From: Podospora anserina
Taxonomy: Eukaryota
Assembly: GCA_017654855.1 (NCBI GenBank)
Contig: CM030338.1
Location: 620,001-684,000, forward strand
Length of the DNA: 64,000 bases
Direction: 5' to 3'
Shown: one piece after another, positions 5,943 to 64,000 of the stretch
Numbering within the stretch: position 1 is the first letter of the stretch
Layout of the letters: each line of letters opens with the position of its first letter
Program-made: the position numbers and the translations under genes
The notes under the pieces: model-generated
What the model saw: only the letters and a program-made list of their open reading frames with translations
Told to the model about the DNA's origin: nothing
Databases searched by the model: none

Positions 5943-6107
5943 TCCGGGTCCTAGCCTTTCCACTGAGCTTGGTACTACAATTTCCCGTGGTGGGTACGGC
6001 TGGCGAGGATCTTTGAGGCTTTATGCTCGGATCCACCAGTAGATTTCATTGGCTCTCCTGGCGTGTTTTCTCACGCTTATCCGGGCAATGGGTTGTTCGG
6101 GAATTTC

Positions 6108-6341
6108 TCAGGTGGTCGGCCGTGAACACTGCGGATTGCTTGAGAATACCACTCGGTCGCCGGGCTTGAAGTCAGGTTCGTGTCGGTGACGGTTTGTTTG
6201 AGCTACCTGTCGCGGTTGAGATTTGACGATAGCGTCCTTGGCAAATTTCACGCACCCTCTGATCAGTTGGGTAAACTTCTGAGCGTCTTCTTGGGTCTTG
6301 CGTTCACTTCGAGGTAAATCAGTCCATTCCTTGGTTCGCAC
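6108..6341 (-). mobile_element. Relic of Ty3/gypsy pol, integrase C-terminal region
   Basis: FAKDAIVKSQPRQVAQTNRHRHEPDFKPGDRV resembles the post-integrase 'Q..Q...NRHR..PDF..GD.V' segment of fungal gypsy elements. No RT or integrase core is recognisable. Confidence 0.6.
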
Positions 6342-7254: not shown

Positions 7255-7445
7255 AGACTTGCCTGATTTAAACTAACTCAGAAACTGACTTAAATGGAGA
7301 CATTAGTTCCCTGTTATAGCTTTTATACCTAACATTACCTTAAACGGAATATTTAGTAATACAGCTAGGGTTATTTTCTAGTAACTCCACTAAAATCCCC
7401 CTGCAGTACTAATAACAATTATCGTGGAATAGGTATATATTCCAG
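7255..7445. other. AT/TpA-rich tract, possible RIP-mutated repeat remnant
   Basis: Local drop in GC with many TA dinucleotides, close to TE relics. Confidence 0.35.
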
Positions 7446-7925
7446 AAACAGCTCTGCCATGGTCTACCTCCAGCCTGGCCTCAGGTGGATTCAATCATTG
7501 CTCACCGTGCTCAGGGCCTGCTCAGGCTCTTGTTCCCCCTGCTCAGGAGATCTCCACTTCTGCTCAGGTTAAAGCGGCGACTGCTCAGGTCCCAAAACGG
7601 AAATGGAAATCGCCCATGTCCAGATTCCGATATTGCTCTGGCTGTTCCAAAACCATCTACAGACTGCTTGGCGTCAGCAAGCCTTGATGCCAATCCAGCA
7701 CCAACAAGCCAGTGCCTGGCTCGTGCAATGTGGCCATCGCATTCGGAGCGTCGGAATTAGACTTGGACGAAAGGAGCAAACGATAAAAGATGGAGAGAAG
7801 GTATTATTCAGCACTTTGATGATGGTGTTTGATTTTGAAGGTATATCCAGCTGTAGACTGCTCACTCAACTTCAATTCCAGTATCCACCACCAGTTTCAG
7901 CAACGGCATTCCGACTCTCACCAAG

Positions 7926-11486: not shown

Positions 11487-11536
11487 TTGTGGGATAAGAC
11501 AGTTTTTCGCCGTTGAATGAAATTTGGCAGGCTCGT

Positions 11537-23810: not shown

Positions 23811-24566
23811 AATCGGGGGAAGGCGTTGAGTTACCTAGGGTGTAATTCCTGAGGCATTATCACCTTAAGCTAGTTCAGGCGAGGTCAGGCACATCGAAGA
23901 GGCAGATCACGTGCGGTGGTCCACAATATATTCTCTTCCATCCACCCACTGACCTGACGGCCATCGATATTCTCAGCAACAGCAGCCCCAATTCCAAAGT
24001 CGACGAGCGCGCAACATTCAGAAAGACGACACAAGTCGGATATCCTGCACCTCACACGTTGCGGTGGCTTCCTTTCAGGACTTTGGACGATACGACATGC
24101 ATTTCTTCTACCATGGCTCCAGGCTAAGCCTGCTTTGTGGAACAACCTCAGAGATGAGGTCGGAAGGTCGCTTAGATAAAGATCTATCCGACTTGGTTCA
24201 TTCGTAACTCTACTCACCAATATCCGGCAAATCACATCTCCACAGCCCTACCCAGCCGCGCCTCTCATATTCAATCTACATCTGCCTGAATATCCCCACC
24301 TATGATTTCGCGTCAAAGATTCCCCGAGGGTGGGAACTCACTTAAGCTCCCAGTTTGCCAAGAATATCTATTGTTTTTCGGATGCCGGCAAGTGTTGTTA
24401 TAGGATTTCATCTATCTCTACTCTATTACTGACCGAGCTGCAGTTAACTCATGGCTTTGTCAACATGGCCGGTTCCTTCTTTAAGATGAGACCTTCCCTT
24501 TGTTTGATGGACTTACCATAGCTCGTTTTTCAACCCGTTCCCGTATCGACACCTGAAGCCTCGACA

Positions 24567-31011: not shown

Positions 31012-32097
31012 CTACATACCCAGAGCAACATAGATCTTGGGGTACATCCACAGCGGCACCACCATAAAGAAGAATCCAAACAGGTACATCATCCCGGCCG
31101 TTCTCACCGCCCAAGACGGCACCTCTCTCTTGCAACTCTTCCACCCCGCCGTCTTCCCGACAAAAGTCTCCACGGCACAAGCCACAAAGTTCAAGAAAAA
31201 GAACAAGACATCCCGACCCATCGCCCCGTCACCAACAGCCCACCCCCCCAAGCCGTGTGACAAGCCCGAAAGTAAAAAAACAAACAGGGGTACCAATGTC
31301 TTTCTCAAACCTGTTTTCTTCTCAACGCCAAGTATATCCAAGAAGAGGCCCGCATAGAACGCAAACGTCGGGATCGTAATCCTATTCCACACTTTCCCCC
31401 AAAAGCCCCTCACAGACGTCGCATTCGCCGCACGCCCCCAGATCGAGGGCCACTCCTCCGGTTCATCCCATCTCAGGACTGCAACGAACGCAAGCGAGAG
31501 AGCACAACGGGAGGCTTCAAGAAGGTAAAACGCTGTCCAGATCCAGTTCACCGAGATGCCGGCTCGGATGAGGAGCTGTCTACCGGTGAGTGGTTGGAAG
31601 CGAAAGACTTCGTAGTCAGGGGCAAAATCCGATGGTTTGGCGCCTGTGAAGACAAATACGGAAATGACACCTTGGACGAGGTGCGTGTCTGCTGTGAAGA
31701 GGAGGGCGATCTTGACGAGCTGAAGGATGGCGAATCTGAGCCGGGATTGGGGGTTCTTGTTGGGAGTAGTGGAGAATACCACTGGGGGGGCTTCAAGCCC
31801 TCGAGGGTTGTTCCAGAGTTTGTAAGCGTTGATGAAACCCGGGGATTTTGGTGGTTGGTGGTCAAGAACAAGGATTTTGAGAGTGTGAAGAAAGTAGAAG
31901 ATGACGAGGCTGGCGTAGGTGCTGTTGAGCCCTCCAGGCCATGTCAGGTGGTGGCAAGTGTTCAGAGACAGGAAGTTGAGTGGCCATATGGCGAGCAGTG
32001 AAAGCTTTCGGATTCCTTTTCCTTGGCCTAGAGACAATATCGTGACGAGGCTCGCCAGAGCAAAAGACCATAAAGGGGTGAATACTGTCGAATGCAT
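31012..32097 (-). CDS. MBOAT_2/wax-synthase-like (TRI7-like) membrane O-acyltransferase
   Basis: Multi-TM; NNPRG, WPSIWG, SVRGFWGKVW and FLLSGLSH (catalytic His). Confidence 0.82.
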   Translation of the reverse strand: MHSTVFTPLWSFALASLVTILSLGQGKGIRKLSLLAIWPLNFLSLNTCHHLTWPGGLNSTYASLVIFYFLHTLKILVLDHQPPKSPGFINAYKLWNNPRGLEAPPVVFSTTPNKNPQSRLRFAILQLVKIALLFTADTHLVQGVISVFVFTGAKPSDFAPDYEVFRFQPLTGRQLLIRAGISVNWIWTAFYLLEASRCALSLAFVAVLRWDEPEEWPSIWGRAANATSVRGFWGKVWNRITIPTFAFYAGLFLDILGVEKKTGLRKTLVPLFVFLLSGLSHGLGGWAVGDGAMGRDVLFFFLNFVACAVETFVGKTAGWKSCKREVPSWAVRTAGMMYLFGFFFMVVPLWMYPKIYVALGM

Positions 32098-32807
32098 AAT
32101 CGTGAGTGAAATGTCGCGCTTTCCGTAGTTGAGAATGACAACATTCATTCGAGATAGAAGTGCTCCAAGGAGGGAGAAAGTGGGAAGTCGACGCCGCAGT
32201 CTTACAGTCTGTAACCCACCTCGTTTAAGTTCCAGCACACCGAATCCTTCTCAGGCGCTATGCGAGGATCCTGTACCATGCACCGTTGCTGCCACGCAAG
32301 CTTCCATAAACCTTGGCTGGTCAGCCTTACACTTGAAACTAGCCCACACTATAGATCAAGGGTGATCCAACGTTACGTTCCACAACCAAGAACATGTTTG
32401 CGGTCCCACGGCAGCCAAGGAAATCGAACATCAGACACGACATCGATGGGCTACCATATCGTCGATACGGACAATCAACATAACATCCACTGCTCCGATC
32501 ACCTACCTGTGTAGGTCATATCTTGGGCCGTGCGGATTGTATACCTGGTCATCATAGTTCTTCTACCATGAGTGCCAGGAGCCGGCCATACCTCGGGGCA
32601 GGTTTCGACCACGAGATCCTCACCCCTGAGAATCTTCACTGCTTCCGTCAAGATCACTAATGGCACCAAGGTCTAGTGACTCTCCAAGCTGACCAACAAG
32701 TCGGTGGGACCTGGCGATGATCAAGGCCTGTTGGAGGAAGGAACCTCTATCCATATTCACTAACAGAACGAGGTAGGGTAGTATGACAAGAGCGAGACCG
32801 GCACAAG

Positions 32808-42319: not shown

Positions 42320-44817
42320 GCTGTCAGATTATGCAGGTTGCCGGGAGCCGAAAAATAATCAACAGCAGGAAAAGGGGGGGAAGGGATGGGAATAAAAGAT
42401 GTGAGCTATAGGGTTCAGTCCTTTGAGAGTGAGCTGACCAGGCGGCTATTGTTGGCGGCAAGTGGACAAGACAGCCCAGCCTGTTGTGTTGGGATGACAA
42501 GCAAATCCAGATATTGGGGTGCAGAGGCGGTTGATATTTATCCTTATTGGAGACAATAACATGATGATCTGGAGCTGGCTTGCCGAGTTGGCTCCGCATG
42601 ATCGTTCTGCTAAGAGATTCAAATTGCATCTCACGCCTCTTCCCGTTCCCTGTTGCAGAGGAAGAAGGCACGGTTCGGCCGTAATGCGGTCTCTTGCCGT
42701 CTTGTCGATGATGAAGCCTGGTTGCTGGGATCCATCGTGGTGTTTGTTCTGTCAGGGGTCCACTTACACAGTGGGTTGCCAACATTGTACATGGAAAAAG
42801 ACCATGGTGTTTGCTCTGCAATGCCTCTTTTGGGAAAATGCAAGGTTAGGAACCAAGGACCGAGGACTCCCGCCGATCTCCTCACCGAATCCTCACCTCA
42901 TGATCCAAAACAATGAATCCTTGAGACGTTGCAGACACCAACAAAGAGAGAAATAGTGATGATCCGGCAGGGAGGGGCAGAAAAGACTTGTCACGGAAGG
43001 GAGCGTTGCGTTATTTGTCCAATTCAGTTAGTGTCATTTGTCCCATCTGCCACGCCGGATAAAACGTCTCTTGTTCTTCAGGCTTGAATGGGCCGGTAGT
43101 CATGTGTGGATCCGCGGATCAACACACCCACGCCGCTGTTTTCTGGGGAATGTGGGGCTCGAATTCATCTATCTGAGATGCTGCTTGTTAGTTACCTGTT
43201 CCGTGTTTGAGGGTTTTCAAATGATGTACAAAATGCGGCAGATTCTCTCGGCGGGGAAATACCCACTGCAGTTGAGCTAGTTTTCTTTTTGATTTTGATT
43301 TGGAGTCATTCGTTCAACTATACGCTCGAAAAAGTTTCTTCGGTCTTGGAATCGATATCCAGTCCCTGCACCCTGTCCCCCACGCATACTTCCTCACCCC
43401 CATGGAACACACCTGACAACGGTTCTGGAATCTGTGCCGCTAATGGAAATGCACATCATTGACCGGTCTCTCTCAAAGGATGCGGCACAGGAGACCTATT
43501 GCCAAGTCGGGGAACTGTCCAGGGCAGCCTTAGTAACCCATCGCTTGCATGGTGCCAATCAGGAAGCCAGGCACAGGGGGGCCGACAACGACCTTATGGG
43601 TACCAAACCTGACCTCACTCATGGTGAACAAGGGGACCCGAGTGAATGGGATCCAGGTCCAGACCTGCTTCCATGCCATCACTGTTGATCTCTCGAAAAC
43701 GACATCAAATCCGCATCAAGTCAGAAATTTTTGTTGGTTGTTACTCATTTCTTGGTACCCATCCTCACTTGATCCTGTTTCGCCCTCTCTGTCCTGTCTC
43801 CATTCCCCTGACATCAACCAAGAATTCACCTACCTGGCGAGACCCTGCAAACCTGTCCCTCAACATGCCGGCCCCAACGGACATTTTCACTCTTGCCTCT
43901 AACCCCAGCCACGTGGTGGGCGTGGTATTCCGGTTTCCAAGCAATGACCAGTGCGGTTCACCAACATGGATCCAAGGATGCCATGCCATCCAACCTCCCT
44001 CCCAGACCTCCCTCACCGAAACCTCGTATCCCCTCACCTCCCCACCTACCACCCCAACCAACCAGCCAAAAACCCCGAATCTCCGCTTGCGTAACAACGG
44101 AAAGGCCCTTCCCTTCCAGTTTCATGCCCGCCAAAGTTCCACAACATATCGGGCTTATAGTCGGCTTCCGTTCGCGGGAGTCGGTGCGTTCTAACCCGTG
44201 TGGCTTGCCTGGGCGTGGTGTGATCCCGAACGCCTCGAGAGATGTGGCTTTCAAGGGTTTGGTCCCTGGGAGATGGCTGACCGAGATAGTATCGAGACTG
44301 GTTTTGAATCGATAGACGCGGTGGGAAGGGCCGGAAGACCCGGTTCACCGTTCAAAGCACGCCGAACAACATCCTTTGTGAGCCAAGAAAGGAAGATGCA
44401 CCTAGGCAGTCAAGAGTTGGCCGCCTTTAAGACCACCCCAGGCCAAATTCGCAAAGAGATCTTGTTCAGCACTCCGCTGGAAAGAAAGTAGGAACCGTAC
44501 CAAAAGACAAAGAACCAATCTATTGTGCTTTCAAGTTTGAAACCAAGAACAGAAAAATCCATTAAGCTAAATAATTAAATCATTAAACGCCATATGCTTG
44601 TGTCAATCCCAAGTTCCCAACCCCGTCTTCCCAGCCCCACCTATGGTCGACGAGCTGCCCCAAACGTTACCCAGAATATATACAAGCCCACCCCCCCCCC
44701 CCTCCACAACCATCACATGGTCAAAATATCATATCATCCGAAGCGAAAGCCTTTTGTTTGTAATCCCCCTTTTGTGTGTCCCTCCTTTCATACATACCAT
44801 CCACTCTCCGTCATATC

Positions 44818-47002
44818 TTACCACCTCCAAGAACAAAACAAAAAGTAATGCACAATATACAAATTATACCCATTCAGTATCAACAACGGCAGCGTGTGAT
44901 ACCAAGGAAAGTCATTCTTTAACCTGTACGTCACCGCGCTAATCACACCGCCAATCGTCAGTATCGTCCAGAACCAACAGAGCAGCCTCATGTTTCTAAA
45001 CTTGTTGCTCTTCTTGTGCGCCTTCTTGTCGCCCGACGCCGCCCAGAGGAGCTCAATCCCAAACAGGCGGTCTTTGATGGCCGTGAGGTAGGCGTACGAC
45101 TGGACTATCATGACGTGCTGGACGTTGAAGCCGTATTTGGCCTTGGCCCAGAAGCGGAAGAGCAGGGAGCCGTAGATGATGGAGGGGATGGCGAAGGCGA
45201 GGTTGTAGTACTTGAACCATTCGGGGCGGAAGATGAGGAGGAGGGTGCCCGGGATGGGGGAGATGAAGATTCCGAGGGAGACGGCCGAGTAGTAGAGGAG
45301 ACCTGTTGATGTCAGCATTGATCGCAGTAAAGGGATGGGAAAACGTCGAGGGTAAACACACCACAGAGATAGCAAACCTTCTGAATGAAGGAAAGGTTCG
45401 AAGTCCAGAAATGCTTGGTCGTCAGGAGCGTCGTGCTGCCTCTGGCCCAGCGCATCTGCTGCGAGAAAAAGGAGCGTGGGGTGTTGGGGCAGATGCCCGT
45501 CGCCAAGCAGAGAGGCACGTACTTGACCTTCCAGCCGCGGTCAACAGCACCGAAACTGCATCTGGTTAGCCCCACTGTCATCTCCCGTCAACAGCCAGAG
45601 CAGTCAAGACTCACCCAGTATGAACATCCTCCGAAAACCCAATCTCGGCCGTCCCTCCCACCTCGACCAGCGCCTCCCTCCTGTACACGGCATTGCTCCC
45701 CACACAAATCGACGCACCCCATTTGTTCCGGTTCACCTGCACCACGCGATAAAACAACTCCTGCGTCGCTCCTGCACCCTGCTCAACCCAAGTCTGGTCA
45801 TCGGTCACCCTGAAAAACTGCGGACTCTGGATGATAGCCGTCTTGGGATCCGCCATGTGCTCAACAACAAGCTCCTTGAGGAAATCGGGACGAGGGCAGA
45901 AATCAGCGTCAAAGATGGCAAAGAACTCCCCCTCCGTCCTGGTAAAAGCCCACCGGAGGTTGCCCGCTTTGCGCAGCCTTGGGCGGTCCTCACGGACAAT
46001 GTAGTTGAAGCCGTACTTCTCTGCCAGAGCCTTGATGGCCGGTTGGTCACCATCGTCAAGGACATAAACCTTGAGCTTTGCCGCGGGCCAATCAAGCTTG
46101 ATGACGTGCTGGTAGGTGTTCTCGATAATCTCCAAGGGCTCAGAGCAGCAAGGCAGGTAGACATCCACCGTCGGGGCAGTCTCATCGTTGATCGGGTACT
46201 TCTCGACCAGCTCCCGGTGGCCCTTGTAGTCCCAATCCTTGCCAACCACACCGACAAAGTACGAGATGATGAGGTAGACGTTGAGGAAGCCGACAAAGAC
46301 ACCGTACCAGGCGAAGATGGGCGCGCAGACGGAGAAGAGCCACATGCCAGCCGAGAGGGTGAAGAAGGAAAAGAGGCCAAAGATGTAGAGCGGGATGCGG
46401 TTCGTGTGCAGGTACATCATCTTCTCCTCGTCGGTTGGGCCGGTGGGGAAGACCAAGCCTGGTTCCTCCCTTGGGCAGTAGGTCTCCCGGAAGCGTTCAT
46501 AGAGACGCTTGAATGGATTCCTGGATTTCTTTCTGGGCGTAGCGGCTGTCTCCTCGCCGGCCTTCTCCGCGTCAGTAGAAGAGAAAGCAACAGGCTGGGT
46601 GCCCTTCTCAACGTCAGCACCGGCCTTTTCATTGAACACTTCCTCCTGTGGTAAAGCGGCAGTCTGCTGAACATGTTAGTATCTGGTTCAACCTTGAATC
46701 AGGAAGCAGATTGCTTACGATTGTCTCCCCCTTGATTGTTTGTGTTGGGGGCGGCCGTGTCAGTGCTCTTGCAGGAGGGGTGACATCGGCAACGGGGAGG
46801 TCCTGAGTTGGCCAGCGTTAGTACATCGCACGGCGATATTAACCATGGTTGCACTTACTCCAGATGTCCTCCTCGAAGACGCACTCTGTGCTGACGAGTC
46901 CACATCTGATGGGTCTCTGAAAGGATCTGGAGTGGCCAGGCTTAAACTGGAACTTGGGGTCTCTGGTATCCCGGGCCGAAGCTGATCCTGACGAGGCGCC
47001 AT
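44818..47002 (-). CDS. Processive GT2 glycosyltransferase, cellulose-synthase-like
   Basis: Five exons from ATG 47002. D,D,D,QxxRW motifs: LDDG, KAGNL, FDADF, QSPQFF, SEDVHTG and QQMRWARG. N- and C-terminal TM helices; no PilZ domain. Confidence 0.92.
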
Positions 47003-47716
47003 CCCGATCTATAGCTGCGCCTGTATCGGCAGCGAGGCTGGAAAGGGGAAGGGAAAGAAAGAAAAGACTGGTCGTGGAGAGGACGACCGACCACGCAGGT
47101 GGGAAAGATCGAAAGGGAAAGAAGAACACAAGAGAGAGACTTGCAACCCAGACGGAGAAAAGAACGACCGTGTGAGGTGTGCAACGCACGACAAGGCCAC
47201 GATATAAGACGAGCAGCTTCACGGGGGACAGGCCGGCTGCTTCTCTTCACCGATCTGTGATCCAAGACGGCGGACAGTTGCGGTGACGTTTGCTCGGTAC
47301 GACGCCGGCAGTGGCTGCCAGACGATCTCGCCGAAGAGGGAAGACACTATTGAAGCTGAAGAGCTAGGGGGGGGTAAAAGATACCATCCCACGCCTGCTC
47401 AAAACGGAGGGCGATCGCTTGATAGGGGAAGTGACGTGGTCCCTGGGCCCTGGCCCGTAGAGAAAGAAGCGCCAACCTAAAATGGTGGCCCGCTACACTT
47501 CGGCAAAAGAAAACAACGGGCAGGACAGACGGCCGGTACGAAAGAGAAAAGAGACATGCAGCAGAAGAACACAAAGAAAGAAAAACATGAGATGGAAATT
47601 CTGCGGAAATTTCGACACACTGCGGAAGGGCTGCGGGACGTGAACATGGGGCCACTGCAGGTACCCATTAGCCAGGATGTGGATCCGCGAAGGCTAGACT
47701 TTCTGATTAGACGACG

Positions 47717-48945
47717 TTATAATAGTACAGCACCAGCACTTCCGATGATCGACATGTTCAACACTACCAACCATGTCCATGACCATGATGCTGCTCGAGT
47801 GTCTGGGGCGGCCCGAGCAGCACCTGACTTGGACTTGGGAAGCTCCTCGGGCGGCAGTGTTGGGGCTGCTCCGGTGTCGAGCACCATATCGAAGTCCGTG
47901 GCCGAAAAGGTGACATTTTCCACAGAACGGAATGCTTCTGATCCAAAAGCCACCACGCCGACAAACGAGCCAGCTGAGACAAGGCCTTCGCGCCAGAGGT
48001 ATTGCAAAAGGGGCGAGACCTCTGCCGAGAAGCTCAGCGCGTTTCCCTCGGCCACCCACGAGAATACGTTGGTACCTCTCTGGTTTTTTCCGTAGTACAA
48101 GGTGCTAGGGCAGCCACGTTAGCGGGAATTTGTAATGACTGGCCGACTGATGAGTGAGTCCAAACAAAAACAACATACAAGTCCACATTGCCCAAGGTGA
48201 GACTTATGCGAGGTCTGTTTTCGTTCCATCCAAGAGGCTGCGCATGTCCAAATCTCCCGAGCCAAATCATGATTTCCGTCTCGGCCATGGTTTCCTTGAC
48301 AGACTTGTCCGCATTGCGATCGGCAAACATGTCGAAGGCCACATTGGCCGTCACGTCAAGGTCGGCCAAGGCTGAGGTATCAACACTCAGTCTCGGTGCC
48401 GGTGTCGATCCCGCCCCCATGGACCATTTCCCTGTCAGATGCATTGCCGAGATGTTGGATAGCGTGACGGGGAGAGCCGGGGCTGTCAGCTTAACGTGGG
48501 GGTAGGAGTGCACCGTATCCGCCGCCGAGGGCCATTTCCAAGTGGCATCAAAGGCCGGCGGTGAGTCTCGAACCTGGGAATCCTGGTCAGCCCTGAGAAC
48601 CGTGATAGCCAGTCAGGTGGGTGGGGGGGAGAGACAAGACAAGACACGGGGCCAAGACTCGGGGGCGGGAAGGGGAGTAGGGGAAAAAGCAGGAATCCGC
48701 TCACGTACCGACATGCACTGAAAGCCCTGGCCATCAGGATTCCACGCGTTTGGAACATCTGGTGTCGAGTGAGCCGTGCTTGCTCACTGTCGAGGGGATC
48801 TGATTGGGTACTCACATATCAACTCGCCCGATCGGCTCGTATAAGTCTTTTGGTTGCAGACGGTTGCATCGTACGAGCCAGAGCTTGCAGAAGTCTGTTT
48901 GATGCATAATAGAACCAGGACAATTGCGTGGCCCAGGCACTGCAT
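47717..48945 (-). CDS. GH12 endo-beta-glucanase with signal peptide and probable GPI-anchor signal
   Basis: Four exons: MQCLGHAIVLVLLCIKQTSA / YVPNAWN...FQCM / FDATWKW...HSYPHV...NVAFDMF...ETEIMIWL / GSEAF. Both catalytic Glu present. Ends KSGAA plus a hydrophobic tail. Confidence 0.85.
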
Positions 48946-50493
48946 CGTGTTGACGGAGTGTAACTCGGGGCAAATGGGCGCGGTTGTCGTGGATGTTCCA
49001 GGTTGTCAGAGATGTCAGGGAACAGGACAGTGCTCCGTACTGATAAAGCAGGGCCAAGCTGACACCGGGCTCTCTGCGTCCCCCGGCCGTCCTCGCATGC
49101 CACCGTGATGCACACTGCCCAGCCCGCTAGAGACCCAGACAGACAGGTCCAATCAGCCCCAGCCGCAAGATTGATCTGGCGCGCACCACTGGCGGATGTT
49201 CCACTGCTTTCAAGCGCTGTCGGGCTCAGGGGCGACGCAACACACCTCGGGTTGGCCCCTGCGTGTTACGGAAGCTGCTGGGTGCTACAGCAGGCGCCAC
49301 CACGAGCTACTACACATAAACGCCCCCTCTCCCGTGCCGAGTCCGGCACGAGGTAAGCCAGGAACATGAGACTGCAAAGAAACCTACAGGTAGACAGAGA
49401 GACCTTTCGTCCCTCCTCTCAAGTCCAGCCTGATGGCCCACGGCTGTCGGTTGCGATTGTGGAATAGTAGGATTCGCCCGTCAGCAGGGAGAAAAAGCCG
49501 CCATTTGCCTCGACAAAATGCTCAGATCGACAACACTATCTGTGATATTGCCAAGTCATCCCAGTAAAGCCCGCCAAGAGATGTTGGGCCTGGAGATCCG
49601 AACCCCTGAAAAGCCAATGGCATGTCGCGGATCGGCAAACCAAGATAGGCGGCCTGAGCCGCACCAGCCCAGCACGGGATAGTGATCGTCTGGCAGACGC
49701 CAATGGACGCCAATGGCGCCATCAAATAAGTGCTCTGGCACTACTGGACAATTCCTTTTTTCTCTTCCCAGTCCATCTCACCTCGAGTTTGTCGGTGGCT
49801 TTTATGCCAAGACGGAAATCTTGGTTGTCTCATGAGACAGCACACCCGCGCAATTCCCCAGGTCGGGCCTTTCGGGCAACACCATGTACGGTACAGAATA
49901 CTTCCCCGAGAGATAACGGGTCAATGCATCCGAGCTCAGACGCCAACTGCAGCCAGCATCTGGCTTGGGTCTGCCGACACTTCAGCAGCCATCGAGATCC
50001 TTGGACCTTCCGTTTGTATTCTGGCCTGTCCGAAAGAGGAAGCGAAGGTGCTATGCCGGACAGACTCATCCGGGAGACAGGATTATCAGCACTGGGAGCG
50101 GTGACTTGGTGAGGGTGATGGCATCGGCGTTTCCTTGATCCAAGGCTGCCTGTTGACGATGATCTCGATAGCTGAGATCTGTTTGCTCCAGGGGTTCGAG
50201 GAAAGGGGCCCGCAACGGCGTGGGTAGGCATACACAGCATTAGTCCGGAGGTGTGTCTTGACCAATGTTATTGCTGGCGTTATTCCGATGGGCAGAGAAG
50301 GACCGCCATTGACGTACTTGCTGGGTGTGATGGTATATATGTTCATCCTTTGATCATGCCGAGCTTTTCGCGCCGAGAATTCTTCACTTCGTCTGCTGCA
50401 TTGTATTACCAAGACGACTCTTGAAGAACCATAGGTCCTGCAGCAGAAAGCCTTTTTGCCTGAGCCGCCGAAACACGGAAGCCAAAGCTGCCC

Positions 50494-52579
50494 ATGGACG
50501 CCTCCAGCTCACCAGCAAGGCCCAAGATGCCCCCTCGACTTCCGAGGTCGTTACCAAGCTCACACTCGATAGCGTCGACCTTTAGTCCGGGGAGCTCGAC
50601 ACCAGGATCATGGACAGTGAGCCCGTGGAATCGAGATACACCAGACACCTCGCCTCCCAGCTCCGACGCTGGCTCTCCTAAGCTCCAGGCCAAACAAGCA
50701 GATGATAGTGGGAGGATCTCTCCGGTGGAGGGCTCACTCGACGGGCAGCCGCGTTTTGGGGTCGTACGCAGTATCTGCTTCGTCGGCGCTGGTTTCGTCG
50801 GTATGTCGTTGCCTATCCCCGCTGTTTGGGACCCATTGAGACTGACATGTTGACAGGAGGACCGACGGCTGCTGTCATTGCCTACCACAACCCACAGATC
50901 CAGGTCAATGTCGTCGACCTTAACGAGGAACGAATCAAGTCATGGAACTCGGCCCATCTTCCCATCCACGAGGATGGCCTGCTCAAAGTGGTACGAACGG
51001 CACGAGACGGCGCGCTGGACAAGACACTGGTACTGCCCGGACTGCCCAGGGCTATCGAATTGAAGCAACGGCAGCCCAACTTGGTATTCTCGACCCGTGT
51101 GGTGGACGCTATCGAGGAAGCCGACATCATTTTCATCTGCGTCAACACGCCCACAAAAACACACGGTATTGGCGCGGGTTCCATGGCTGATGTGAGCGCG
51201 ATTGAAAGCGCAACGCGGACTGTGGCCAAGCATGCCAAGGAGGGAGCCATCGTTGTTGAGAAGAGTACTGTTCCATGTGGAACCGCACAGATGATCCAGG
51301 ATATTGTGAGTCGCTGCCATGTAGTCTGAACCGGAAGCAGTTTGCTGACTTGAAAACACAGCTTCGATACTACCGGCCAGATGTCGAGTTTGAGGTGCTT
51401 TCCAACCCTGAATTCCTAGCCGAGGGCACGGCTGTGGAAAACCTCATGCACCCTGACCGAATTCTTATCGGTAGTGCCCAGACACTTGCAGGTCTCCGTG
51501 CTGCCGCCGTTGTCAAGGACGTGTACGGAGCTTGGGTGCCTGCGGCTCGCATCGTGACTGTCAACACCTTCAGCAGTGAGCTGGCCAAGCTTGTGGCAAA
51601 CACCATGCTTGCTCAGCGTATCAGCAGTGTCAATGCAGTCAGCGCCATGTGCGAGGAGCTTGGGCTTGGAGCAGACGTCGAAGACGTCAGCCTCGCCATT
51701 GGAAAGGACGCACGACTGGGTTCCAAATTCCTCCAGGCTGGCGTGGGATTTGGGGGCTCCTGCTTCGAAAAGGATATCCTCAACTTGGCCTATCTTGCAA
51801 GGGAGCTCCATCTTGATGTGGTGGCCGACTACTGGCTTGCTGTGCTGAGAATGAATGAAGACCAACGGCGGCGCTATGCTCGCAATGTTGTGCGCGAGCT
51901 CAACGGGTCACTTCGAGGGAAGAAGATTGCCATCCTAGGATTCGCCTTCAAGGATGGTACTAATGACACGCGCAACAGCATTGCTGTTCACGTCATCAAA
52001 GATCTGGCCATGGAGATGCCGCGCGAGATTGCCATCTTCGATCCCGGCTGTGCGTCGGCCGAGATCCGTGAAGAGGTCGAGAAGGCGGGCTTGACCGCAA
52101 GCCAGCTCGAGCGCATCAAGATCTTGACCAACTGGAGGGATTGCGTCCAGGAAGCAAGTGCCGTGTGTATCCTGACACAGTGGAAACAATTCCGGGGCCG
52201 CAAGCTTGGCTCGGCCACGTCTAGCAACAAGAAGGCACGGAAACTGACAGCTGACTGGGCGACAAGCTGTGTGGCAGACAAAGCTGATATCAGCGAAATG
52301 GACATCTTGGCACTGGAGGAGCTCGTGAGAGACAAGTCGTCGGCGACAACCGGTGATGACCCATTGGAAAGACTGGCACCGCTTGCGCCCTGTCCCGAAG
52401 AGTGTTCACATTGCCGCATCGAGAGCGCAGAGGCTCATGATCAGGAGCCAGTGGACTGGGCTGAGGTGGCCGGCATGATGCAGGAGCCGCGCTGGGTGTT
52501 CGATGGGCGGAATGTGGTGAACAGGCTGGAGCTCCAGAGTCTTGGTTTTAGAGTGAGGGGTATCGGAAAGGGTTTTTGA
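50494..52579 (+). CDS. ugd1: UDP-glucose 6-dehydrogenase
   Basis: GAGFVGG (across an intron), ICVNTPT, EKSTVP, NPEFLAEG, catalytic GFGGSCF and FDGRN; two introns. Confidence 0.93.
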
Positions 52580-55500
52580 GGATGGAAAATGGGTAATGGT
52601 AGATATCAGGACGGGAGTTTGGCGTCATCCCCATGTTGTAATTGCGTGTGAATTCTTCTTGTATATCGGGCTTTTAATCGGTTTTGGTTGTTGAAATTGA
52701 AGGATAGGTTCCGGGTTTGCGATGGCAGCTTTGGGTGCAGGGTTCAGGGTGCAGAGTGATGTCGGGTTAGAGTTGAATTGGGGTAAGCTGTTAGTGCAAT
52801 ACTGAGCTGTTCGCTTAAAATTAGTGCCGTGGGCTGTCCCAAATTAACAGTGCGCTCCCGCCCATCCCCCTGCCCGTTCTGTGCTTGGCAAGTCCTTCAG
52901 CCCGATCCCGTCTCAACAACCTCACCAACGGGCAGTCTCGATACGTTTCTCCGGGCAGTGTTTGTAAACAGCAACTGCCGCTCCGAATATCGCTAGCCCA
53001 CCGTGTTATCAATTTGACACGACATCTTCACAGCTTGACAATACCCCATGGCAATCTGGTGCAAGCTGCCGACTGCCGTCGAAAATGCCCAGCCAGATAA
53101 GCGACCAGAACAGCCGGCCGGGTGGTCTGTCTGTCAGAGACCTAGAACCACCTGTTACCAACAGCAACAACACCTCAGTCTGTAACCCGGGGCATGGTAA
53201 CAGGTCACACCAGCATCCCACTGAATAGGCATTCATATGCCGCGATAGCATTGGGCTCCAGTGGAGGCGTACAGGGCCGCCTCCAGTAATAACGTTCCCC
53301 GACTTTCCATATTGGTGTTGACATGTTTCGACAGCCGTCGCGCCACGATGGTTCGGCCGATACGCCCGGCATTCCCGCCGATGCATCTTCCCGTGGCTAA
53401 AAGCAAGAGCCTCATTGTGCTTCCACGACCACAGCCGAACGTAAGAGCCCCGAACGCAAGCTATGGACAACATCTGCTATTTTGTACCTTGGCTAGGCTT
53501 CCATCGGGGAGAAAAAAGGGTAAGGAGATGTGTCACGACGTCAAGGGACAACCCAAGAAGGACAAGCAAGGCTATCTTGACCGAAACGCATCACCAGATC
53601 ATCTCAACGTTGGCATGACGTGTAACTTAGCAGATGGCTCTCTCGTGTTCGAACACATCTGCCCTGTTATCTGAAGGCTCATCAGTGGAACTCGGTGGCA
53701 AACTCGGCCAGAGGGAACCAAATATTGGGGGTGTATAGATGGCGACGATCAACTACACTCTCTCGGGGCAGGCTTGGCAGGGTCCAGCAGGAGTGCAATA
53801 TTTTTACGAGTCTCAAGACGACTCCTGGTGTTTCTTTATCACGTCGGATGATACAAGAGAGTGTTGGCCTTGGCCTAGGTTCGCAGATGATAGAAGTTTC
53901 TGGCTTCGTTGGAGGCACTTTTGCCAAGTCGACCTAGCCAAGCCCACCTCAACTGTCTTCTCGCGCTGTCCGAACAAAGCACAGCAGAAAGCATCGCATG
54001 CTGTGCTGCTGTTCTCAGCTGTCTCGACGTGGAAAAAGAAAGCCCATGGATGATTCGTACCAACAGGCATTCATTGCACACCGTCACAGAGAGCTTTGTC
54101 GGTTGCCCAAAGAGGAAATTTCTGGTGTGGAAGGATGACGTCGACCCCACCATCTCGACCAGGCGAGCAGCTCAGCCTCTATGCAGTCGCCATAGCGGTC
54201 CCCCGCTGATCTCGTGCGCGTTTCTTGCATTACCGTTCACTGCCGTTGCTGCATGCATACACGATGTGCCAACGGTTGGGATGCTGCATTGCCGAGTTCC
54301 AGTGGCCGAATGGGTTGAGCCGACTTTGACGCAGGCCTCTAACGACTGGACGGCCTACTGTCCCGGTGCAGTGTGGGCGTGCTGACCGTGGCCTCTTCGG
54401 GAGGTAGCCCCGATCGCTGGAAGCTACCCTTTCCGATGATCCTGCTACTCTGCAATAGTGCACAGCGGCGAATCGGCATCAGAATGGCAAACACCAAGAG
54501 CAGATTTTCTCAACAAAACCGCGGTGTCAGTCTACACAGTATGGCTTGAAATGTACTGCATGACAGAAGCTGCCATCGACGTTGCACACGGCTCAAGGTG
54601 TGCAACCAGCAACTTCCTGCGCGGCTGACATGGCGACAGCCTCTGGGGAAAGCTGTCCTAATCTCTCGCCAGTGAGTCAGTAGCTTCGGTAAAGGGAACG
54701 CTGTAGGTGAGCAGTTGACCTCTCTACCTTGGTGGGCTGAGGTGAGTTTTTGCTCGTCAGCAGGAGAAGCTGTATAGAACACGGACAGAAGACATTGATC
54801 AGCACAGTTGGTGCTATTTTTGCCAGCCTGGTCACTTTTACCCTGGTTGCTGCGCAGCATTCGGTTCCGGTCCCCTGGGTGTGCCGCGCAAGTGCTGGCA
54901 GCGCTTCTTCTGGGGACCGCCCCCGTTTCACCCTGCTTTGTCAACGGCCACCAAGCGACCACATTTGACACGAAACCCGAGAGTCTCATTCTGGACTGGT
55001 GAATGTCAAGGAAAGAACATCATCTGTCACCCGGTGAGCATCATCATACCGGAGGCTCGGAGTGAGAGGGAGGACTCACCACCTTGAAGTGAGGATGAGC
55101 CTGCTTGCTAATGGTCATTTGTTCAACTCAGCCTTCTCGAGGAGAACATCTCATTGGTCTTGGGGAAGACATCCGCTGAATGTGCCGCAAAGGCTAGTTT
55201 ACCTACACCCTCCCTTACCCCAGACAACACCGTTACACGGCAAAGGCAAGTGCCCGTGTGCTTGTTGTCGCCCGTTAGTACGGGGCGCACCCAGCAGCAG
55301 TGTGGAGGGTGTGAGCGGAAGCCGGCGGCAAGGCTGCCGAGCAATGGGGTGTGTGTGTGCGCCTCTTGAGGATGGTGGGCCGGGGGGAGTGTCCCCTCGC
55401 ACCTGCAGAGGGTCATATCTGCATATAACAGAACCGGTCGCCCGCCCTTGGGTCGTCGGCCCTGATCTAAACCAACCTCGCCAGCCAGACTGCCCGCCAG

Positions 55501-55919
55501 AAACTCTCGCCAGAAACAGTTTGCACCGCCTAGCCTATCCTCACACCAGGTCTTCTACTGGAGATCACAAACATCGCCGAGACATCGACCCTTCGTATAT
55601 CTGGGTCCGGACGCCGGTCTTGTCAACCCTCCCTCTTCTGGTTCTCCTCTATGTCCCCATGTCTTTGACACAACCTGGACGGCAATCAATAGCCTGTTTT
55701 ACGCAGGACACGGCAGACTGACATCGCACTTGACCGGACACCACCTCAGATCACCATCACTTTAGCAATCGTAACCGGCCATCAAAGATCCCGAGCAGAT
55801 CTACTGGGACCTCGTCACCAGTATCACCACCCACAGTCAAACAGCCCGATATAACCATACCATCTCCCTCCACATCTCCACAACTCGTTCGATCAAACAA
55901 CACACTCAACACCACCACC

Positions 55920-57113
55920 ATGTGCCTCTCCAAGGTCTACTACAACTCCTACTCGGACGGCCAGCAGGACGTCACCGAAAAGACGTATGCCTGCCGCGAT
56001 GGCAGACGCTGCGCCAACCCCGAAGTCCGCAAATACGACCGCAAATTCCCCTTCACCAAGCTAGGGGAAGCCCAGCCCGAGTCCCAGCGCAGCATCTCTG
56101 AACGCAAGCCCACCCCCTACTTTGAGTCTCGCGGCTCCAAGTCCCCTTCCCCATCAGGCAGAGACAGCAGACGGGACTCTGGCATCTACATGGGTGGCGG
56201 CTCCTCTTCCAAGTCCAGCAAGCACTACGACCCTTACGACCCTTACTCCTCCGGACCCTATCGTTCCTCCTCTTCTTCCCGGGCCCGTGGTGACCCGAGG
56301 GACTACTATGGTGGGAGGTCAAGGTCAAACTCGATCCCGCAGATCATCTACATGGACGGCCGGGACGGCTACAAAGAAAGCGGCAAGCGGTCGAGATCCA
56401 GCAGCAGGGATTACTCGAGGGATATCCCCATCGGTCCCGTCCACTTGGCCGACGAGTACGGTCGTCGTTCCTCCCGGTCTCGCTCCCGAGACTCGACCGA
56501 CTTGAGCTCCAAATACTACAGCACCAGCGGCAGGGGAAGAGGGGATGCCATGTCGGGGTACATGTTCATTGACGATCAAGACGAGAGGCGGAGACAGAGA
56601 AGAGAAAGGCGGCTGTCGACCTCGAGCGCGATGGATGAGTACGACCCCAGTCGGTATGTGCCCCGCTCTTCGCGACGGGCTTCGACGACTGGGGGAACTG
56701 TGGTCCACAATGGGGATGGCACCAGCCTTTACACTTCGTCATCGGCACCCACCGGTCTTTCTTCGAGCAAGTCTGGGTCGGGACATGTCAGGTGGGAGGA
56801 TGAGGTCCGCGCCAAGAGGAACAGGCAGAACGCCGAGATTGCCAACCGGCCGGTGTTAGGCTCGGACGGCGAGCCGAAGAGCATTCTCAAGAAGAAGGGC
56901 GATGTGAAGGGCAAGGGGAGGGAGAGTGATGAGGATCTGTATGACTTGAGGAGGGCAGTGGAGGGGATGGGGTTGCCGAGCAGAGGGAGGAGGTCGTCGT
57001 CGGGGAGGGACTTGATGGATGAGTATCCGTCTAGCAGGTATGATGATGGGTTGGGGGCGAGGAAGAGCAGGGGGAAGAGCGGGTATTCGGATGATCGGTA
57101 TCGGTATTTCTGA
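55920..57113 (+). CDS. Ser/Arg/Gly-rich low-complexity hypothetical protein
   Basis: 397-aa ORF with a good start context and a short Cys-containing N-terminus. Confidence 0.75.
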   Translation: MCLSKVYYNSYSDGQQDVTEKTYACRDGRRCANPEVRKYDRKFPFTKLGEAQPESQRSISERKPTPYFESRGSKSPSPSGRDSRRDSGIYMGGGSSSKSSKHYDPYDPYSSGPYRSSSSSRARGDPRDYYGGRSRSNSIPQIIYMDGRDGYKESGKRSRSSSRDYSRDIPIGPVHLADEYGRRSSRSRSRDSTDLSSKYYSTSGRGRGDAMSGYMFIDDQDERRRQRRERRLSTSSAMDEYDPSRYVPRSSRRASTTGGTVVHNGDGTSLYTSSSAPTGLSSSKSGSGHVRWEDEVRAKRNRQNAEIANRPVLGSDGEPKSILKKKGDVKGKGRESDEDLYDLRRAVEGMGLPSRGRRSSSGRDLMDEYPSSRYDDGLGARKSRGKSGYSDDRYRYF

Positions 57114-61055: not shown

Positions 61056-62528
61056 TTACTCCGGTAACTTTGTTGGTTTGGTTGCCGTCGTAGTAGACTT
61101 GTACAGCCACTGCGGGAACCTGACGCTGGGTTCGTCAAACATCCTCGTGACAATCTCGGCGAGCCATAATGTCAGCGGTAAGAGGATGATGTGTGGCGCC
61201 AGAAAGCTCAGCTCCATCCCCATGGGTCCCGTCTTGGGAAGCTCCCAGATGTTGACCCACTGAGGAAGGTTCTTCACTCGGTGCTCCTCCCACCACCCAA
61301 CTGCCGCGTAGAGCCGATCTCCCACCGTCCAGATCACCGGGCCGTGGACGAGATAGAAAGCAAACGATATCCTCCCCATGTGCTGACAGAACCGTGTCTC
61401 AAAGAAACGCTTGACCCATCCGATGTGTGGGATGGCAGCCACCAGCATGACGGCTGCAAAGAAGAGGAAAAACCACTTGACGTCGTAGATGGACTGCGAC
61501 TTGAGGAATGACAAGTAGTACCACCCCGGGTTCTTTCTCAACTCCTTCACATCCGCGCTGTGAGCCGGGATGCCCCCAAGCCACATGGCGATGAAGAAGC
61601 AGTGGTACATGATGATCATCTTGTACGGTCGGAGTCGCTCAAAAAAGGCCGGGAGCTCGTTCTTGCTGGCGAGTTGTTCGACGTCGCTGATGAACATGCC
61701 CGCAACAAAAAGGGCACAGTACCACCCATCCACGATGAACATGAAGTACCCCATCAGCCCGATTTGCAGCCACAGCCGCGCGTTTCGTGTGCACCTAGCA
61801 AAGGCAAGCGCCGCCGTGTACACGACGATGGACCCTTTCATCTCGACTGGGATGGACCAGAGGTGGAAGTTGTAAGACAAGATCTCGGCTCTGGTGTGGA
61901 AGATGAAGGTGAAGTTTTTGACCTCACAGTACCACCCCCAGATCTCAGCGCCCAACGAGGACGCCCTCTTCAGAGGTAAAACCCAGATGTTGAAGACGTA
62001 GGTGAAAACCATGTAAATAAACGTTGTGGTGATTAATGGGATGTAGAGCCGCAACCATCGCCGAAACAACGCGGATCCCAAATTGTCAGCAAGCTTTGCC
62101 TGGTCGCCTGATTGGATCAAGCTCATGGGCTTCATCGAGAGGACATATCCCGAGATGACGAAGAAGGTAGCCACGGCAAAGTGGCCGCCGTGGAAAAGGA
62201 TGCGGACGAAGGGCAAGGCTGCGAAGTAGCAGTAGCCATCATAGCAAAACGCCGACTCGAAGAACAGCCTCTGATCGGGCACGTGAGCCCAGAGTTGGTG
62301 GTGGTGAATGTAAACGAGAAAAGCGGCAAAGCCCCTAAGGCCATCGAGATATGCCGTCGGTCGTAGTTTGTCTGATTGTCCATGTGTCCTCGGCCATGGG
62401 CTGAGAAGTCGCCATATCTTGTTGACCCGTAGGGAAGCCAGCATCGATATCACGGCCGAGAGTGGGCCTGATGAGGCGTACTGATGCTTCCCCTGTCTGG
62501 ATTCCAGCTCAATCACGTCGCTGGGCAT
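61056..62528 (-). CDS. Acyltransferase-3 family (OafA-like) multi-pass O-acyltransferase
   Basis: YLDGLRGFAAFLV, FFVISGYVL, RRWLRL, HLWSIPVE and GRISFAFYLVH. Confidence 0.92.
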   Translation of the reverse strand: MPSDVIELESRQGKHQYASSGPLSAVISMLASLRVNKIWRLLSPWPRTHGQSDKLRPTAYLDGLRGFAAFLVYIHHHQLWAHVPDQRLFFESAFCYDGYCYFAALPFVRILFHGGHFAVATFFVISGYVLSMKPMSLIQSGDQAKLADNLGSALFRRWLRLYIPLITTTFIYMVFTYVFNIWVLPLKRASSLGAEIWGWYCEVKNFTFIFHTRAEILSYNFHLWSIPVEMKGSIVVYTAALAFARCTRNARLWLQIGLMGYFMFIVDGWYCALFVAGMFISDVEQLASKNELPAFFERLRPYKMIIMYHCFFIAMWLGGIPAHSADVKELRKNPGWYYLSFLKSQSIYDVKWFFLFFAAVMLVAAIPHIGWVKRFFETRFCQHMGRISFAFYLVHGPVIWTVGDRLYAAVGWWEEHRVKNLPQWVNIWELPKTGPMGMELSFLAPHIILLPLTLWLAEIVTRMFDEPSVRFPQWLYKSTTTATKPTKLPE

Positions 62529-64000
62529 CGTGGGCGACGGTGGTTGAGCGGGATCATGAAATGAAAGTTTCTCTCTGGGGAGTGGCTGGAACCCTCGTGA
62601 ATGTCGTCGTCGTTGATGAGTTGCCGTTGCAAAAAGGTTGGAATTTGTGAAAAGGGGGCTTTATCGCTGCTGACGGTTTGTTGTGCCCAGAACACTCAAT
62701 GCAACCCTGGCTTCAAGGGAGGTGATTGGACGTTTGCGTCCACACCCAAGGTCTTGGGAGGATCAGATTCAGGGCCAGGTTTCTCCAGCTTTAATCGCCA
62801 CGGCTGGACTGATGCGACAACGTAATGCCGTGTCTCCAGAGGGAAGGGCCGCGTGAGGATGGATAAGACAACATCGTGACAGTTTAATAAGAGCCTGGAC
62901 GCGTTGAAAACATCTGTTTGTGGGGGTCGAGATTGAGCTGTGGGGAGCCAAGACATCAAAAGCGAGCACGGCAAGCTGGGAGTTACATAATCAGTGAAGA
63001 CTTTCTCCCTAGACCGCATTCCTACATAGCACTTTACACCGGGCAATTGCATGAGAAGCATTCGCATTCCCTCCCCTCCTGTAATTTACGTCGCTGGAGA
63101 TTATCGCTTTGAACTAACGGTTGAGCATTTTCACTTTTCGACTCGTCCTCAGTCTCGACACCTGACAACAGACAACAGCAGAGGACCGGGGTAGGAGCGG
63201 AGCAAGCCGCCATGTCGGGGGGCACTCCTTGCTTTCCCCATACTCTTGGCAATGTTGCGCCGAGAAGAGCACAAGGTCTGATATCCACCTCGACATGATG
63301 CTATTCTCTGATATCAGGCTGTCAAATAGCTACGGTTTATGATATCACTATGCTAATCGTTCTCTACACTACAGGAATGCCCTAGTTTGAGCTTTCATTG
63401 TGCCTGTTCGGTATGGATGTGTTCGCTGCCTCCAAAAACAAGTGCGGAGGCATCTTCACATGCTGGCTGAAGGCCCTCTCAAGTCCCGCGGCTCAATCCA
63501 AACTGGAACCAGCTCCGCGCCCACCATGCAGGTGATGGCGCCTCCCCATCGATCTCAACTGCTGGGGAAGCGGAGAAATCGAGGGGAAAAGACAACCAAG
63601 ACAAGCTCAACGGCTGCACCAGTGCAACCCTCACGCATCATCATCCTTGCCGGCCCACCTGCCACTTTCTGGTAGAGATCGCTGTGTGGTACCTTGTGCC
63701 TTCCAGCCTGGGAGGCTGAAGCATCGTCACTGGCCACGGCAGCATGGGAGATGGAGAGGGCCCTCACCATGGCGCCTCTCCGCACTGAGACAGTCCTTGA
63801 ATCTCCACCACCCTAGCCAGTAGTTCCTGCGCCCGTTCTCTGAGCCAGGGTGTCGCTCTTATAAGCCAACCTCTAGGATTGGCCAGAGAGACGATCAGAG
63901 AGGGACTGCCTCCAGCAACTGGACCTGATCACATCCTGTTCCTTGGACAGGCCCCGGCACTACACCTTCTCTCCCCGCCGTGACATTCAGCCATGTGCGG

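Follow-up and report, generated by a model that had tools for sequence, protein, structure and literature searches.

Why does a filamentous fungus carry the genes for a candidate polysaccharide synthase, a predicted surface hydrolase and a nucleotide-sugar dehydrogenase side by side, and what might they make together? The question is raised by a locus of Podospora anserina (assembly GCA_017654855.1, contig CM030338.1) within a stretch of 64,000 nucleotides (contig positions 620,001 to 684,000, forward strand), hereafter called the window, whose numbering is used throughout. The locus encodes a cellulose-synthase-like glycosyltransferase of family 2 (GT2), a glycoside hydrolase of family 12 (GH12) and a UDP-glucose 6-dehydrogenase (UGD). 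In this study, the trio or its GT2-UGD core was found to be linked in several fungal classes, and the adjacency of the three genes is more than chance. The three genes probably act in one pathway. We give about even odds to a conserved three-gene module that makes an extracellular beta-glycan by a synthase-dependent route, with a polymer containing glucuronic acid (GlcA) as the best reading of the product; that the product contains GlcA is, taken by itself, a tentative claim, to which we give slightly less than an even chance.

Gene structure and transcription of the trio

The initial annotation of this DNA, made from its letters, had described three adjacent intact genes, with GT2 and GH12 in the same orientation and UGD divergent from GH12 across about 1.55 kb. 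This layout was borne out by Pfam matches, nine RNA-confirmed introns and intact spliced frames: GT2 and GH12 lie on the minus strand, 1548 bp separate GH12 from UGD, and the outer limits of the locus are the outermost bases of the GT2 and UGD stop codons (Table 1). Contigs of four public runs from four studies were aligned to positions 44500-52800. Together, the four runs backed the nine GT..AG introns with spliced contigs, although some cut positions are uncertain by 1-2 nt. Because spliced joints with canonical intron ends occurred in all four runs, the run contigs are RNA-derived, and all three genes are transcribed in Podospora (4/4 runs). Scripted splicing at the RNA joints gave three open frames, each running from methionine to stop. 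The GT2 protein shares 644 of its 651 residues with a Podospora comata protein (P0001), and its large exon matched the P. comata protein at 99% identity in a protein search; UGD shares 651 of 657 residues (99%) with its P. pseudoanserina counterpart (P0241).

In run X12, the GT2 transcript contig extends to 47304 and the GH12-side contig begins at 47593. The GH12-GT2 spacer is bridged by contigs in runs X1 and X4, which is no proof of a single transcript; in the same two runs, one contig covers all three genes. Between GH12 and UGD, run X12 has a separate RNA contig (49672-50205), some 300-800 nt ahead of the UGD start codon, which suggests either a long UGD leader or an independent transcript. 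In five Sordariales-like loci, GH12 and UGD lie about 1.4-1.6 kb apart. Alignment of the intergenic regions of six loci gave a mean column identity of 45% and no conserved block.

Predicted properties of the three proteins

The GT2 matched PF00535 (73.8 bits; cut-off 23.3) and PF13632. Its disordered N-terminus is followed by two hydrophobic helices, a GT-A domain and about five C-terminal helices, with hydrophobic segments at residues 168-218, 486-516 and 595-616. The motifs LDDG (278-281), DAD (328), SED (420) and QQMRW (458) match LDDG, DCD, TED and QRIRW of Escherichia coli BcsA column for column, and the catalytic motifs are invariant or nearly so across 14 orthologues; ICVGS stands where BcsA has FFCGS. 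An AlphaFold2 model from 14 orthologues, with a mean pLDDT (predicted local distance difference test) of only 62 (moderate), contained two N-terminal and about five C-terminal long helices, and the protein ends about 30 residues past the last of them. BcsA was the best Foldseek match of this model (9b8v, E 1.6e-19), with about 550 columns aligned at an identity of about 20-22%; further matches were chlorovirus hyaluronan synthase (7sp7, E 1.6e-13), plant CesA, barley CslF6 and chitin synthases. A profile search of the PDB also placed the GT2 closest to BcsA (7lby, E 4.9e-49). No PilZ domain appeared in a Pfam scan of the GT2 exons or in the Pfam lists of the 240 homologues listed. By its sequence, the GT2 is BcsA-like and retains all of the predicted catalytic motifs.

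The GH12 was detected by PF01670 with 47 bits (cut-off 27) from one exon only, and it aligns with Trichoderma Cel12A (1oa3, 1h8v, 1olq) across both halves. Its E160 (EIMIW) aligns with the Glu of ELMIW in Cel12A and its E248 (GSEAF) with Cel12A residue 200 (GTEPF); we take the Cel12A equivalents of these residues to be the catalytic glutamates of GH12. The N-terminus carries a signal-like peptide, and the C-terminus a hydrophobic tail of about 20 residues after a small-residue site and a spacer. Such a tail, of the glycosylphosphatidylinositol (GPI) type, was present in all 15 GH12 orthologues from related loci. The earlier description of a GPI-anchored GH12 therefore stands as to family, signal-like peptide and conserved tail, whereas the anchor itself, and with it the placement of GH12 on the cell surface, is a prediction from sequence features.

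The UGD contains PF03721, PF00984 and PF03720 (E-values 2.8e-31 to 4e-21) and scored 308 bits against TIGR03026 (cut-off 189.8). It matched human UGDH (2q3e) with E 1.9e-122, versus 6.4e-25 for GDP-mannose dehydrogenase (1mfz), and it keeps the catalytic GGSCF when aligned to the human enzyme. Homology thus assigns it to the eukaryotic-type UDP-glucose 6-dehydrogenases. Against human UGDH it stands out as a long form: its Ser/Pro-rich N-extension spans about 90 aa, and it has two inserts, one of about 21 aa and one of about 85 aa in the C-terminal domain (about residues 531-615 of P0241; about 52200-52455 of the window). The longer insert is kept in cluster-linked UGDs of other fungal classes, with SEMDI..LE, DPL.RL and a Cys-rich motif. 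The latter, C-x3-4-C-x2-C, was found in 8 of 9 aligned sequences, the exception being the Neurospora crassa protein. The N-extension (residues 60-80) has a TPxTSPPxS motif and several Ser/Thr-Pro sites. The Cys motif and the Ser/Thr-Pro sites suggest that UGD might be subject to metal binding or phosphoregulation.

Linkage of the trio across fungi

GT2 and UGD were called as lying on the same contig when the two matches of a species reported an identical longest-contig size. Among the matches listed in the protein searches, this held for 19 named species, and shared contigs were as short as those of Rhypophila (26,483 bp), Chaetomium olivicolor (26,732 bp), Zalerion (70,819 bp) and Achaetomium (74,570 bp). 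The locus-tag pairs VTI74DRAFT_6886/6888 and OQA88_880/882 have one gene between them; for 12 assemblies of Sordariaceae, GT2 and UGD have accession numbers exactly two apart, a gap that leaves room for one gene. A GH12 domain (PF01670) was fused to GT2 in 8 of 120 gene models among the GT2 matches listed, from Sordariales, Xylariales, Ophiostomatales and one Dothideomycete. Since the two genes of Podospora have their own starts and stops and mostly separate contigs, the fused models are probably merged annotations; as such, they prove that in these species the two genes are neighbors with the same orientation.

A scan of metagenome contigs yielded 50 loci with a GT2 alignment, 25 of them non-redundant at a GT2 identity of at least 55%. 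Where at least 2.5 kb was available upstream of GT2, a GH12 was present in 9 of 12 loci; where at least 6 kb was available, a UGD was present in 7 of 8. The exceptions were L030, which has no GH12, and two loci described below (L018 and L022). The gene order differs among Leotiomycete-like loci: two (L016/L017) have GH12, GT2 and then UGD downstream, and a third (L015) has GT2 followed by UGD. In another locus (L018), whose GT2 core is identical to that of Aureobasidium pullulans P0047, UGD (5627-7494, minus strand) and GT2 (10028-11737, plus strand) are accompanied by a GH5 (PF00150, E 3.3e-43) just downstream of GT2 (11824-12645, minus strand); no GH12 was detected there, and UGD is retained. 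Between the window and distant loci, the trio comprises the only genes in common. Thus, the linkage has outlasted both rearrangement and a swap of the hydrolase family, which argues for selection on the cluster and in particular on its GT2-UGD core.

Single-linkage clustering of GT2 representatives merged nearly all of them and was uninformative. A tree of the GT2 core, however, tracks the fungal classes, which fits a single orthogroup. It contains a Sordariomycete clade with the trio, a clade of the Dothideomycete Glonium and two metagenome loci (L011/L012) with the trio present, a Leotiomycete clade (Mollisia, Cadophora and L015-L017) in which UGD has been relocated downstream of GT2, an Aureobasidium row identical to L018, and a clade of the Pezizomycete Trichophaea and L022/L023 in which GT2 is solitary. 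Across the classes, the GT2 orthogroup has 56-69% identity to the Podospora protein. The trio or the GT2-UGD pair is therefore linked in Sordariomycetes and in Dothideomycetes-like and Leotiomycetes-like loci, although the counts are phylogenetically non-independent.

It could be argued that this adjacency is inherited synteny without function and that the GH12 is an ordinary secreted plant-cell-wall glucanase. Much of the linkage does lie within related Sordariomycetes, and one lineage (L022/L023) has a solitary GT2. We nevertheless regard this explanation as very unlikely: the flanking genes are not conserved whereas the trio is, the trio is maintained in three classes despite rearrangements, and secreted biomass degraders do not usually carry the GPI-type tail seen in all 15 GH12 orthologues. 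GT2 and UGD are, moreover, listed together as targets of the regulator NUC-3 (10.1101/2025.04.07.647663).

Distant members of the same eukaryotic GT2 clade occur in Agaricomycetes, Ustilaginomycotina, chytrids, brown algae, Tribonema and the chlorovirus ATCV-1 (Z823R; P0401/P0535). Among the rows outside this eukaryotic clade is one Actinomycetota metagenome-assembled genome. The brown-algal members are cellulose-synthase-like proteins, which have been discussed as candidate mixed-linkage glucan or mannuronan synthases (PMC11468063).

Regulation in Neurospora

The same 90% clusters include, from N. crassa, NCU08226 (GT2) and EAA30082 (named UDP-glucose dehydrogenase), whose accessions are two apart. 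In this species, gld-2 (NCU08228, UDP-glucose 6-dehydrogenase) and gt2-4 (NCU08226) are reported among 26 genes under direct repression by the basic helix-loop-helix protein NUC-3. Such repression was defined by promoter binding in DNA affinity purification sequencing together with expression at least 2-fold higher in the nuc-3 deletion when phosphate had been withheld for 12 h; CACGTG forms part of the NUC-3 consensus (10.1101/2025.04.07.647663). Co-regulation of synthase and dehydrogenase is thus on record in N. crassa, both being direct NUC-3 targets. NCU08226, one of seven GT2 candidates for lichenin synthesis, is also among the candidates highly upregulated in perithecium development (PMC6796803). 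Its knockout exists in the Neurospora deletion collection, and the deletion strain is viable and forms more biomass on cellulose (PMC3364853). For NCU08227, no main-text mention was found in the literature searched. Together, these reports suggest that the module serves sexual development (perithecia) and belongs to the NUC-3 branch of the phosphate-starvation circuit.

In N. crassa lists, the candidate GT2 NCU04167 is numbered beside the GH16 NCU04168, and NCU09906 is near the GH16 NCU09904 (PMC6796803). These adjoining locus numbers hint that GT2-glycanase pairing is more widespread in Sordariales. Phosphate starvation reportedly induces NCU09906 at least 6-fold (10.1101/2025.04.07.647663).

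What the locus may produce

In the scheme that we propose, the long-form UGD, assigned to its class by homology, would oxidize UDP-glucose to UDP-glucuronic acid (UDP-GlcA) in the cytosol. The BcsA-like GT2 in the plasma membrane would then polymerize nucleotide sugars, presumably in a processive manner, and extrude the chain via its own transmembrane helices. The polymer may contain GlcA and might, for instance, be a glucuronan or a chain in which Glc and GlcA alternate; this step is drawn entirely from the conserved GT2-UGD linkage and the bacterial and viral precedents compared below. On the outer face, the putatively GPI-anchored GH12, which is predicted to be catalytically competent, might trim, release or transglycosylate the nascent chain. 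The initial annotation had already pointed to a beta-linked surface polymer that possibly contains GlcA. Conserved linkage and co-regulation in N. crassa now speak for that interpretation; its chemical part we infer.

The main rival reading has the GT2 using UDP-glucose to form a neutral beta-glucan, either cellulose-like or of mixed 1,3;1,4 linkage, which the GH12 processes. UGD would then adjoin for another reason: the genes might share a promoter or chromatin domain, or the enzyme might control the UDP-glucose pool or supply some other glycan with GlcA or xylose. BcsA is the best match of the GT2 in sequence and in fold, and the structure matches of the GH12 include endo-1,4-glucanases, xyloglucanases and the 1,3-1,4-glucanase 7ee2. 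Among bacterial relatives, a Streptomyces homologue is paired with a GH26, and a UGD is seldom nearby (counts below). The fungal GT2 AfTFT1 makes mixed-linkage glucan (10.64898/2026.09.17.752320), and the lichenin of the N. crassa wall, with NCU08226 as one of its seven candidates, lacks an assigned synthase (PMC6796803). A neutral product leaves several observations less well accounted for, however. The GT2-UGD link outlasts rearrangement and replacement of the hydrolase, the UGD is a specialized long form conserved along with the cluster, and the GT2 is probably not of the mixed-linkage-synthase lineage, as no Eurotiales occur among the 240 GT2 matches listed. GT2 and UGD also share a place in the NUC-3 target list (10.1101/2025.04.07.647663), and a review favors the vegetative cps-1 and NCU03240 over NCU08226 as lichenin synthases (PMC6796803). 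On balance, we consider a neutral glucan rather unlikely, if still the foremost competitor of a GlcA-containing polymer.

In another alternative, UDP-GlcA would not be the donor of the synthase but would be used, for instance by way of UDP-xylose, to make side chains that enzymes from other loci attach; the result would be a xyloglucan-like decorated beta-1,4-glucan that would suit the GH12. UGD is the first step toward UDP-xylose, many characterized GH12 enzymes are xyloglucanases, and the PDB matches include 3vl8, 4npr and 9ktq. The window, however, contains no UDP-xylose synthase, xylosyltransferase or other glycosyltransferase (Pfam, 20 long open reading frames), and nothing apart from the trio is common to the window and the distant loci. 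This makes a decorated glucan a most improbable product.

Several observations weigh against the GlcA-containing polymer that we favor. The closest solved relatives of the GT2 are cellulose synthases that use UDP-glucose. The linkage is incomplete: in two loci of a Pezizomycete-like lineage (L022/L023), GT2 stands alone amid housekeeping genes, and in two others (L005/L006, 6360-6895), only an N-terminal part of UGD (query residues 25-204) was detectable despite several kb of flank, so that UGD may have decayed or been rearranged there. Among bacterial relatives, mostly Actinomycetota at 34-41% identity, a UGD-family gene lies within 8 kb in only 3 of 80, which indicates that linkage to UGD is not ancestral to the GT2 family; a GH12 was near none of the 80. 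The UGD may be the sole copy in the genome and serve other needs as well. The NUC-3 core motif CACGTG is absent from 44.8-52.6 kb of the window (9 sites in the whole window, versus 15.6 expected), and 5 of 6 related loci also lack it between their cluster genes, the sixth (L036) having a single site in the GH12-GT2 spacer; NUC-3 control is thus on record for N. crassa only. The mature GH12 domain has a net charge of -7. The hydrolase families seen beside this synthase or a close bacterial relative (GH12, GH5 and GH26) are associated mostly with neutral beta-glycans, and the partner of a polyuronide is more usually a lyase. Taken together, the hydrolase families and the charge of the GH12 neither favor nor exclude an acidic substrate. 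To our knowledge, no GlcA polymer has been reported from the walls of Podospora or Neurospora, and a text search of a review of the N. crassa wall gave no occurrence of 'glucuronic' (PMC6796803).

The bacterial homologue mentioned above, from Streptomyces antibioticus (L052:7821-9524, plus strand), is 38-40% identical to fungal GT2. Downstream of it, to about 14100, lie an open reading frame with a GH26 domain and two of the PMT_2 family of membrane glycosyltransferases, with no UGD.

A more far-reaching version of our proposal can be formulated. The locus could represent an undescribed GlcA-polymer pathway of Pezizomycotina in which a dedicated long-form UGD feeds the BcsA-like synthase, and in which the insert and N-extension of UGD dock or regulate it at the synthase. 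The product would be a phosphate-free, anionic wall or matrix polymer under the NUC-1/NUC-3 circuit and in fruiting bodies, a fungal counterpart of teichuronic acid. We consider this complete picture unlikely.

Coordinates, neighboring genes and significance

The features of the locus and of its surroundings are compiled in Table 1. The two membrane acyltransferase-type reading frames (Acyl_transf_3 and MBOAT_2) were considered as cluster members and set aside; they are not beside the trio in other loci, whose UGD-side flanks are short. An open reading frame beside UGD (55734-57110), annotated as hypothetical, is common only to two loci (L003, L008) and was likewise rejected. The NB-ARC/TPR and HET-domain genes of the window are typical Podospora non-self-recognition genes.

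Table 1. Features of the 64-kb P. anserina window (ORF, open reading frame; UTR, untranslated region)
Feature	Position	Strand	Description	Evidence
GT2 synthase gene	44818-47002	-	5 exons, 651 aa	Pfam, RNA joints, intact spliced ORF
GT2 exons	44818-45300, 45360-45555, 45615-46663, 46719-46801, 46858-47002	-		
GT2 introns	45301-45359, 45556-45614, 46664-46718, 46802-46857	-		RNA joints
GH12 stop/GT2 start spacer	47003-47716	.	holds GT2 5' UTR and GH12 3' UTR	
GH12 gene	47717-48945	-	4 exons, 320 aa	Pfam, tblastn with orthologues, RNA joints
GH12 exons	47717-48104, 48179-48571, 48707-48758, 48816-48945	-		
GH12 introns	48105-48178, 48572-48706, 48759-48815	-		RNA joints
GH12-UGD divergent intergenic region	48946-50493	.	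1548 bp	
UGD (UDP-glucose 6-dehydrogenase) gene	50494-52579	+	3 exons, 657 aa	Pfam, NCBIfam, RNA joints
UGD exons	50494-50799, 50856-51305, 51362-52579	+		
UGD introns	50800-50855, 51306-51361	+		RNA joints
NB-ARC + TPR (NLR-like STAND) gene	3-2801	-	runs off window start	
HET-domain gene	21918-23834	-		
MBOAT_2 ORF	31012-32250	-	about 12.5 kb from trio	
Acyl_transf_3 membrane acyltransferase ORF	61056-62660	-	about 8.5 kb from trio	

Literature searches found no paper that describes the trio as a unit or assigns its product; searches on glucuronan synthase and on the UGD of Podospora or Neurospora returned nothing on the trio, and no trio-related terms were found in a preprint on Podospora sexual development. 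What is new here is a candidate synthase-dependent polysaccharide locus of filamentous fungi with a GPI-type GH12 and a specialized long-form UGD. Polysaccharides of the fungal wall and matrix are drug and crop-protection targets, and few of their synthases have been assigned. The module occurs in Sordariomycetes and in Dothideomycete-like and Leotiomycete-like lineages, including the models Neurospora, Podospora and Sordaria and plant pathogens such as Colletotrichum, Cytospora and Fusarium (the last for GT2). If its product is acidic, the GT2 would be the first synthase of a uronic-acid polymer to be assigned in filamentous ascomycetes, and such a product could explain why these fungi retain a specialized UGD.

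Comparison with known systems

The Aspergillus galactosaminogalactan cluster (gtb3, sph3, ega3, uge3 and agd3) comprises a GT4-type transferase, a GH135, a GH114, a 4-epimerase and a deacetylase, and its polymer is alpha-linked and cationic. It resembles the Podospora locus as a fungal, co-regulated set in which glycoside hydrolases accompany a polymerizing transferase and an enzyme of nucleotide-sugar metabolism, all serving an exopolysaccharide, but its enzyme families are unrelated to those of the trio. The tua operon of Bacillus, which includes TuaD and makes teichuronic acid, is a lipid-linked multi-enzyme pathway induced by PhoP. It too is a UGD-containing polysaccharide locus tied to a phosphate-starvation regulon; the only phosphate link of the trio, by contrast, is the NUC-3 repression in N. 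crassa, and the Podospora UGD scored 269.8 bits against the TuaD NCBIfam model, under its cut-off of 700.

AfTFT1 (XP_748682) is likewise a fungal multi-pass cellulose-synthase-like GT2 for a wall polysaccharide (PMC4344333; 10.64898/2026.09.17.752320). Its lineage is present in Aspergillus and has 70-96% identity across classes, and a yeast expression assay exists for it (10.64898/2026.09.17.752320). No Aspergillus or Penicillium protein occurred among the 240 GT2 matches listed, which reach down to about 50% identity, or among the 12 named clusters of 20 GT2 representatives looked up. Given this absence of Eurotiales and the high identity within the AfTFT1 lineage, the Podospora GT2 is probably of a separate lineage, set apart by match lists rather than by direct alignment. 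A text search of the AfTFT1 preprint gave no occurrence of the words 'GH12', 'hydrolase', 'neighbor' and 'dehydrogenase' (10.64898/2026.09.17.752320).

Bacterial BcsA/BcsZ comes close to the trio in architecture: the predicted fungal synthase has a GT-A domain with DDG, DxD, (T/S)ED and QxxRW between predicted transmembrane helices, and a hydrolase gene lies beside the synthase gene. BcsZ is a GH8, whereas the hydrolase of the Podospora locus is a GPI-type GH12; the locus also includes a UGD and has no detected PilZ domain and no BcsB partner. In streptococcal hasA/hasB, pneumococcal type 3 cps3S/cps3D and the hyaluronan synthase and UGD genes of chloroviruses, a single GT2 synthase is paired with a UGD that supplies UDP-GlcA. 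The trio has the same genetic linkage of a membrane GT2 synthase with a UGD, and the two are co-regulated in N. crassa (10.1101/2025.04.07.647663). Those systems are bacterial operons or viral genes, however, whereas that of Podospora consists of three separately transcribed, intron-bearing genes with a divergent promoter and a predicted surface hydrolase. In sum, the trio resembles bcsA/bcsZ, hasA/hasB and cps3S/cps3D in its presumed working and belongs to none of them.

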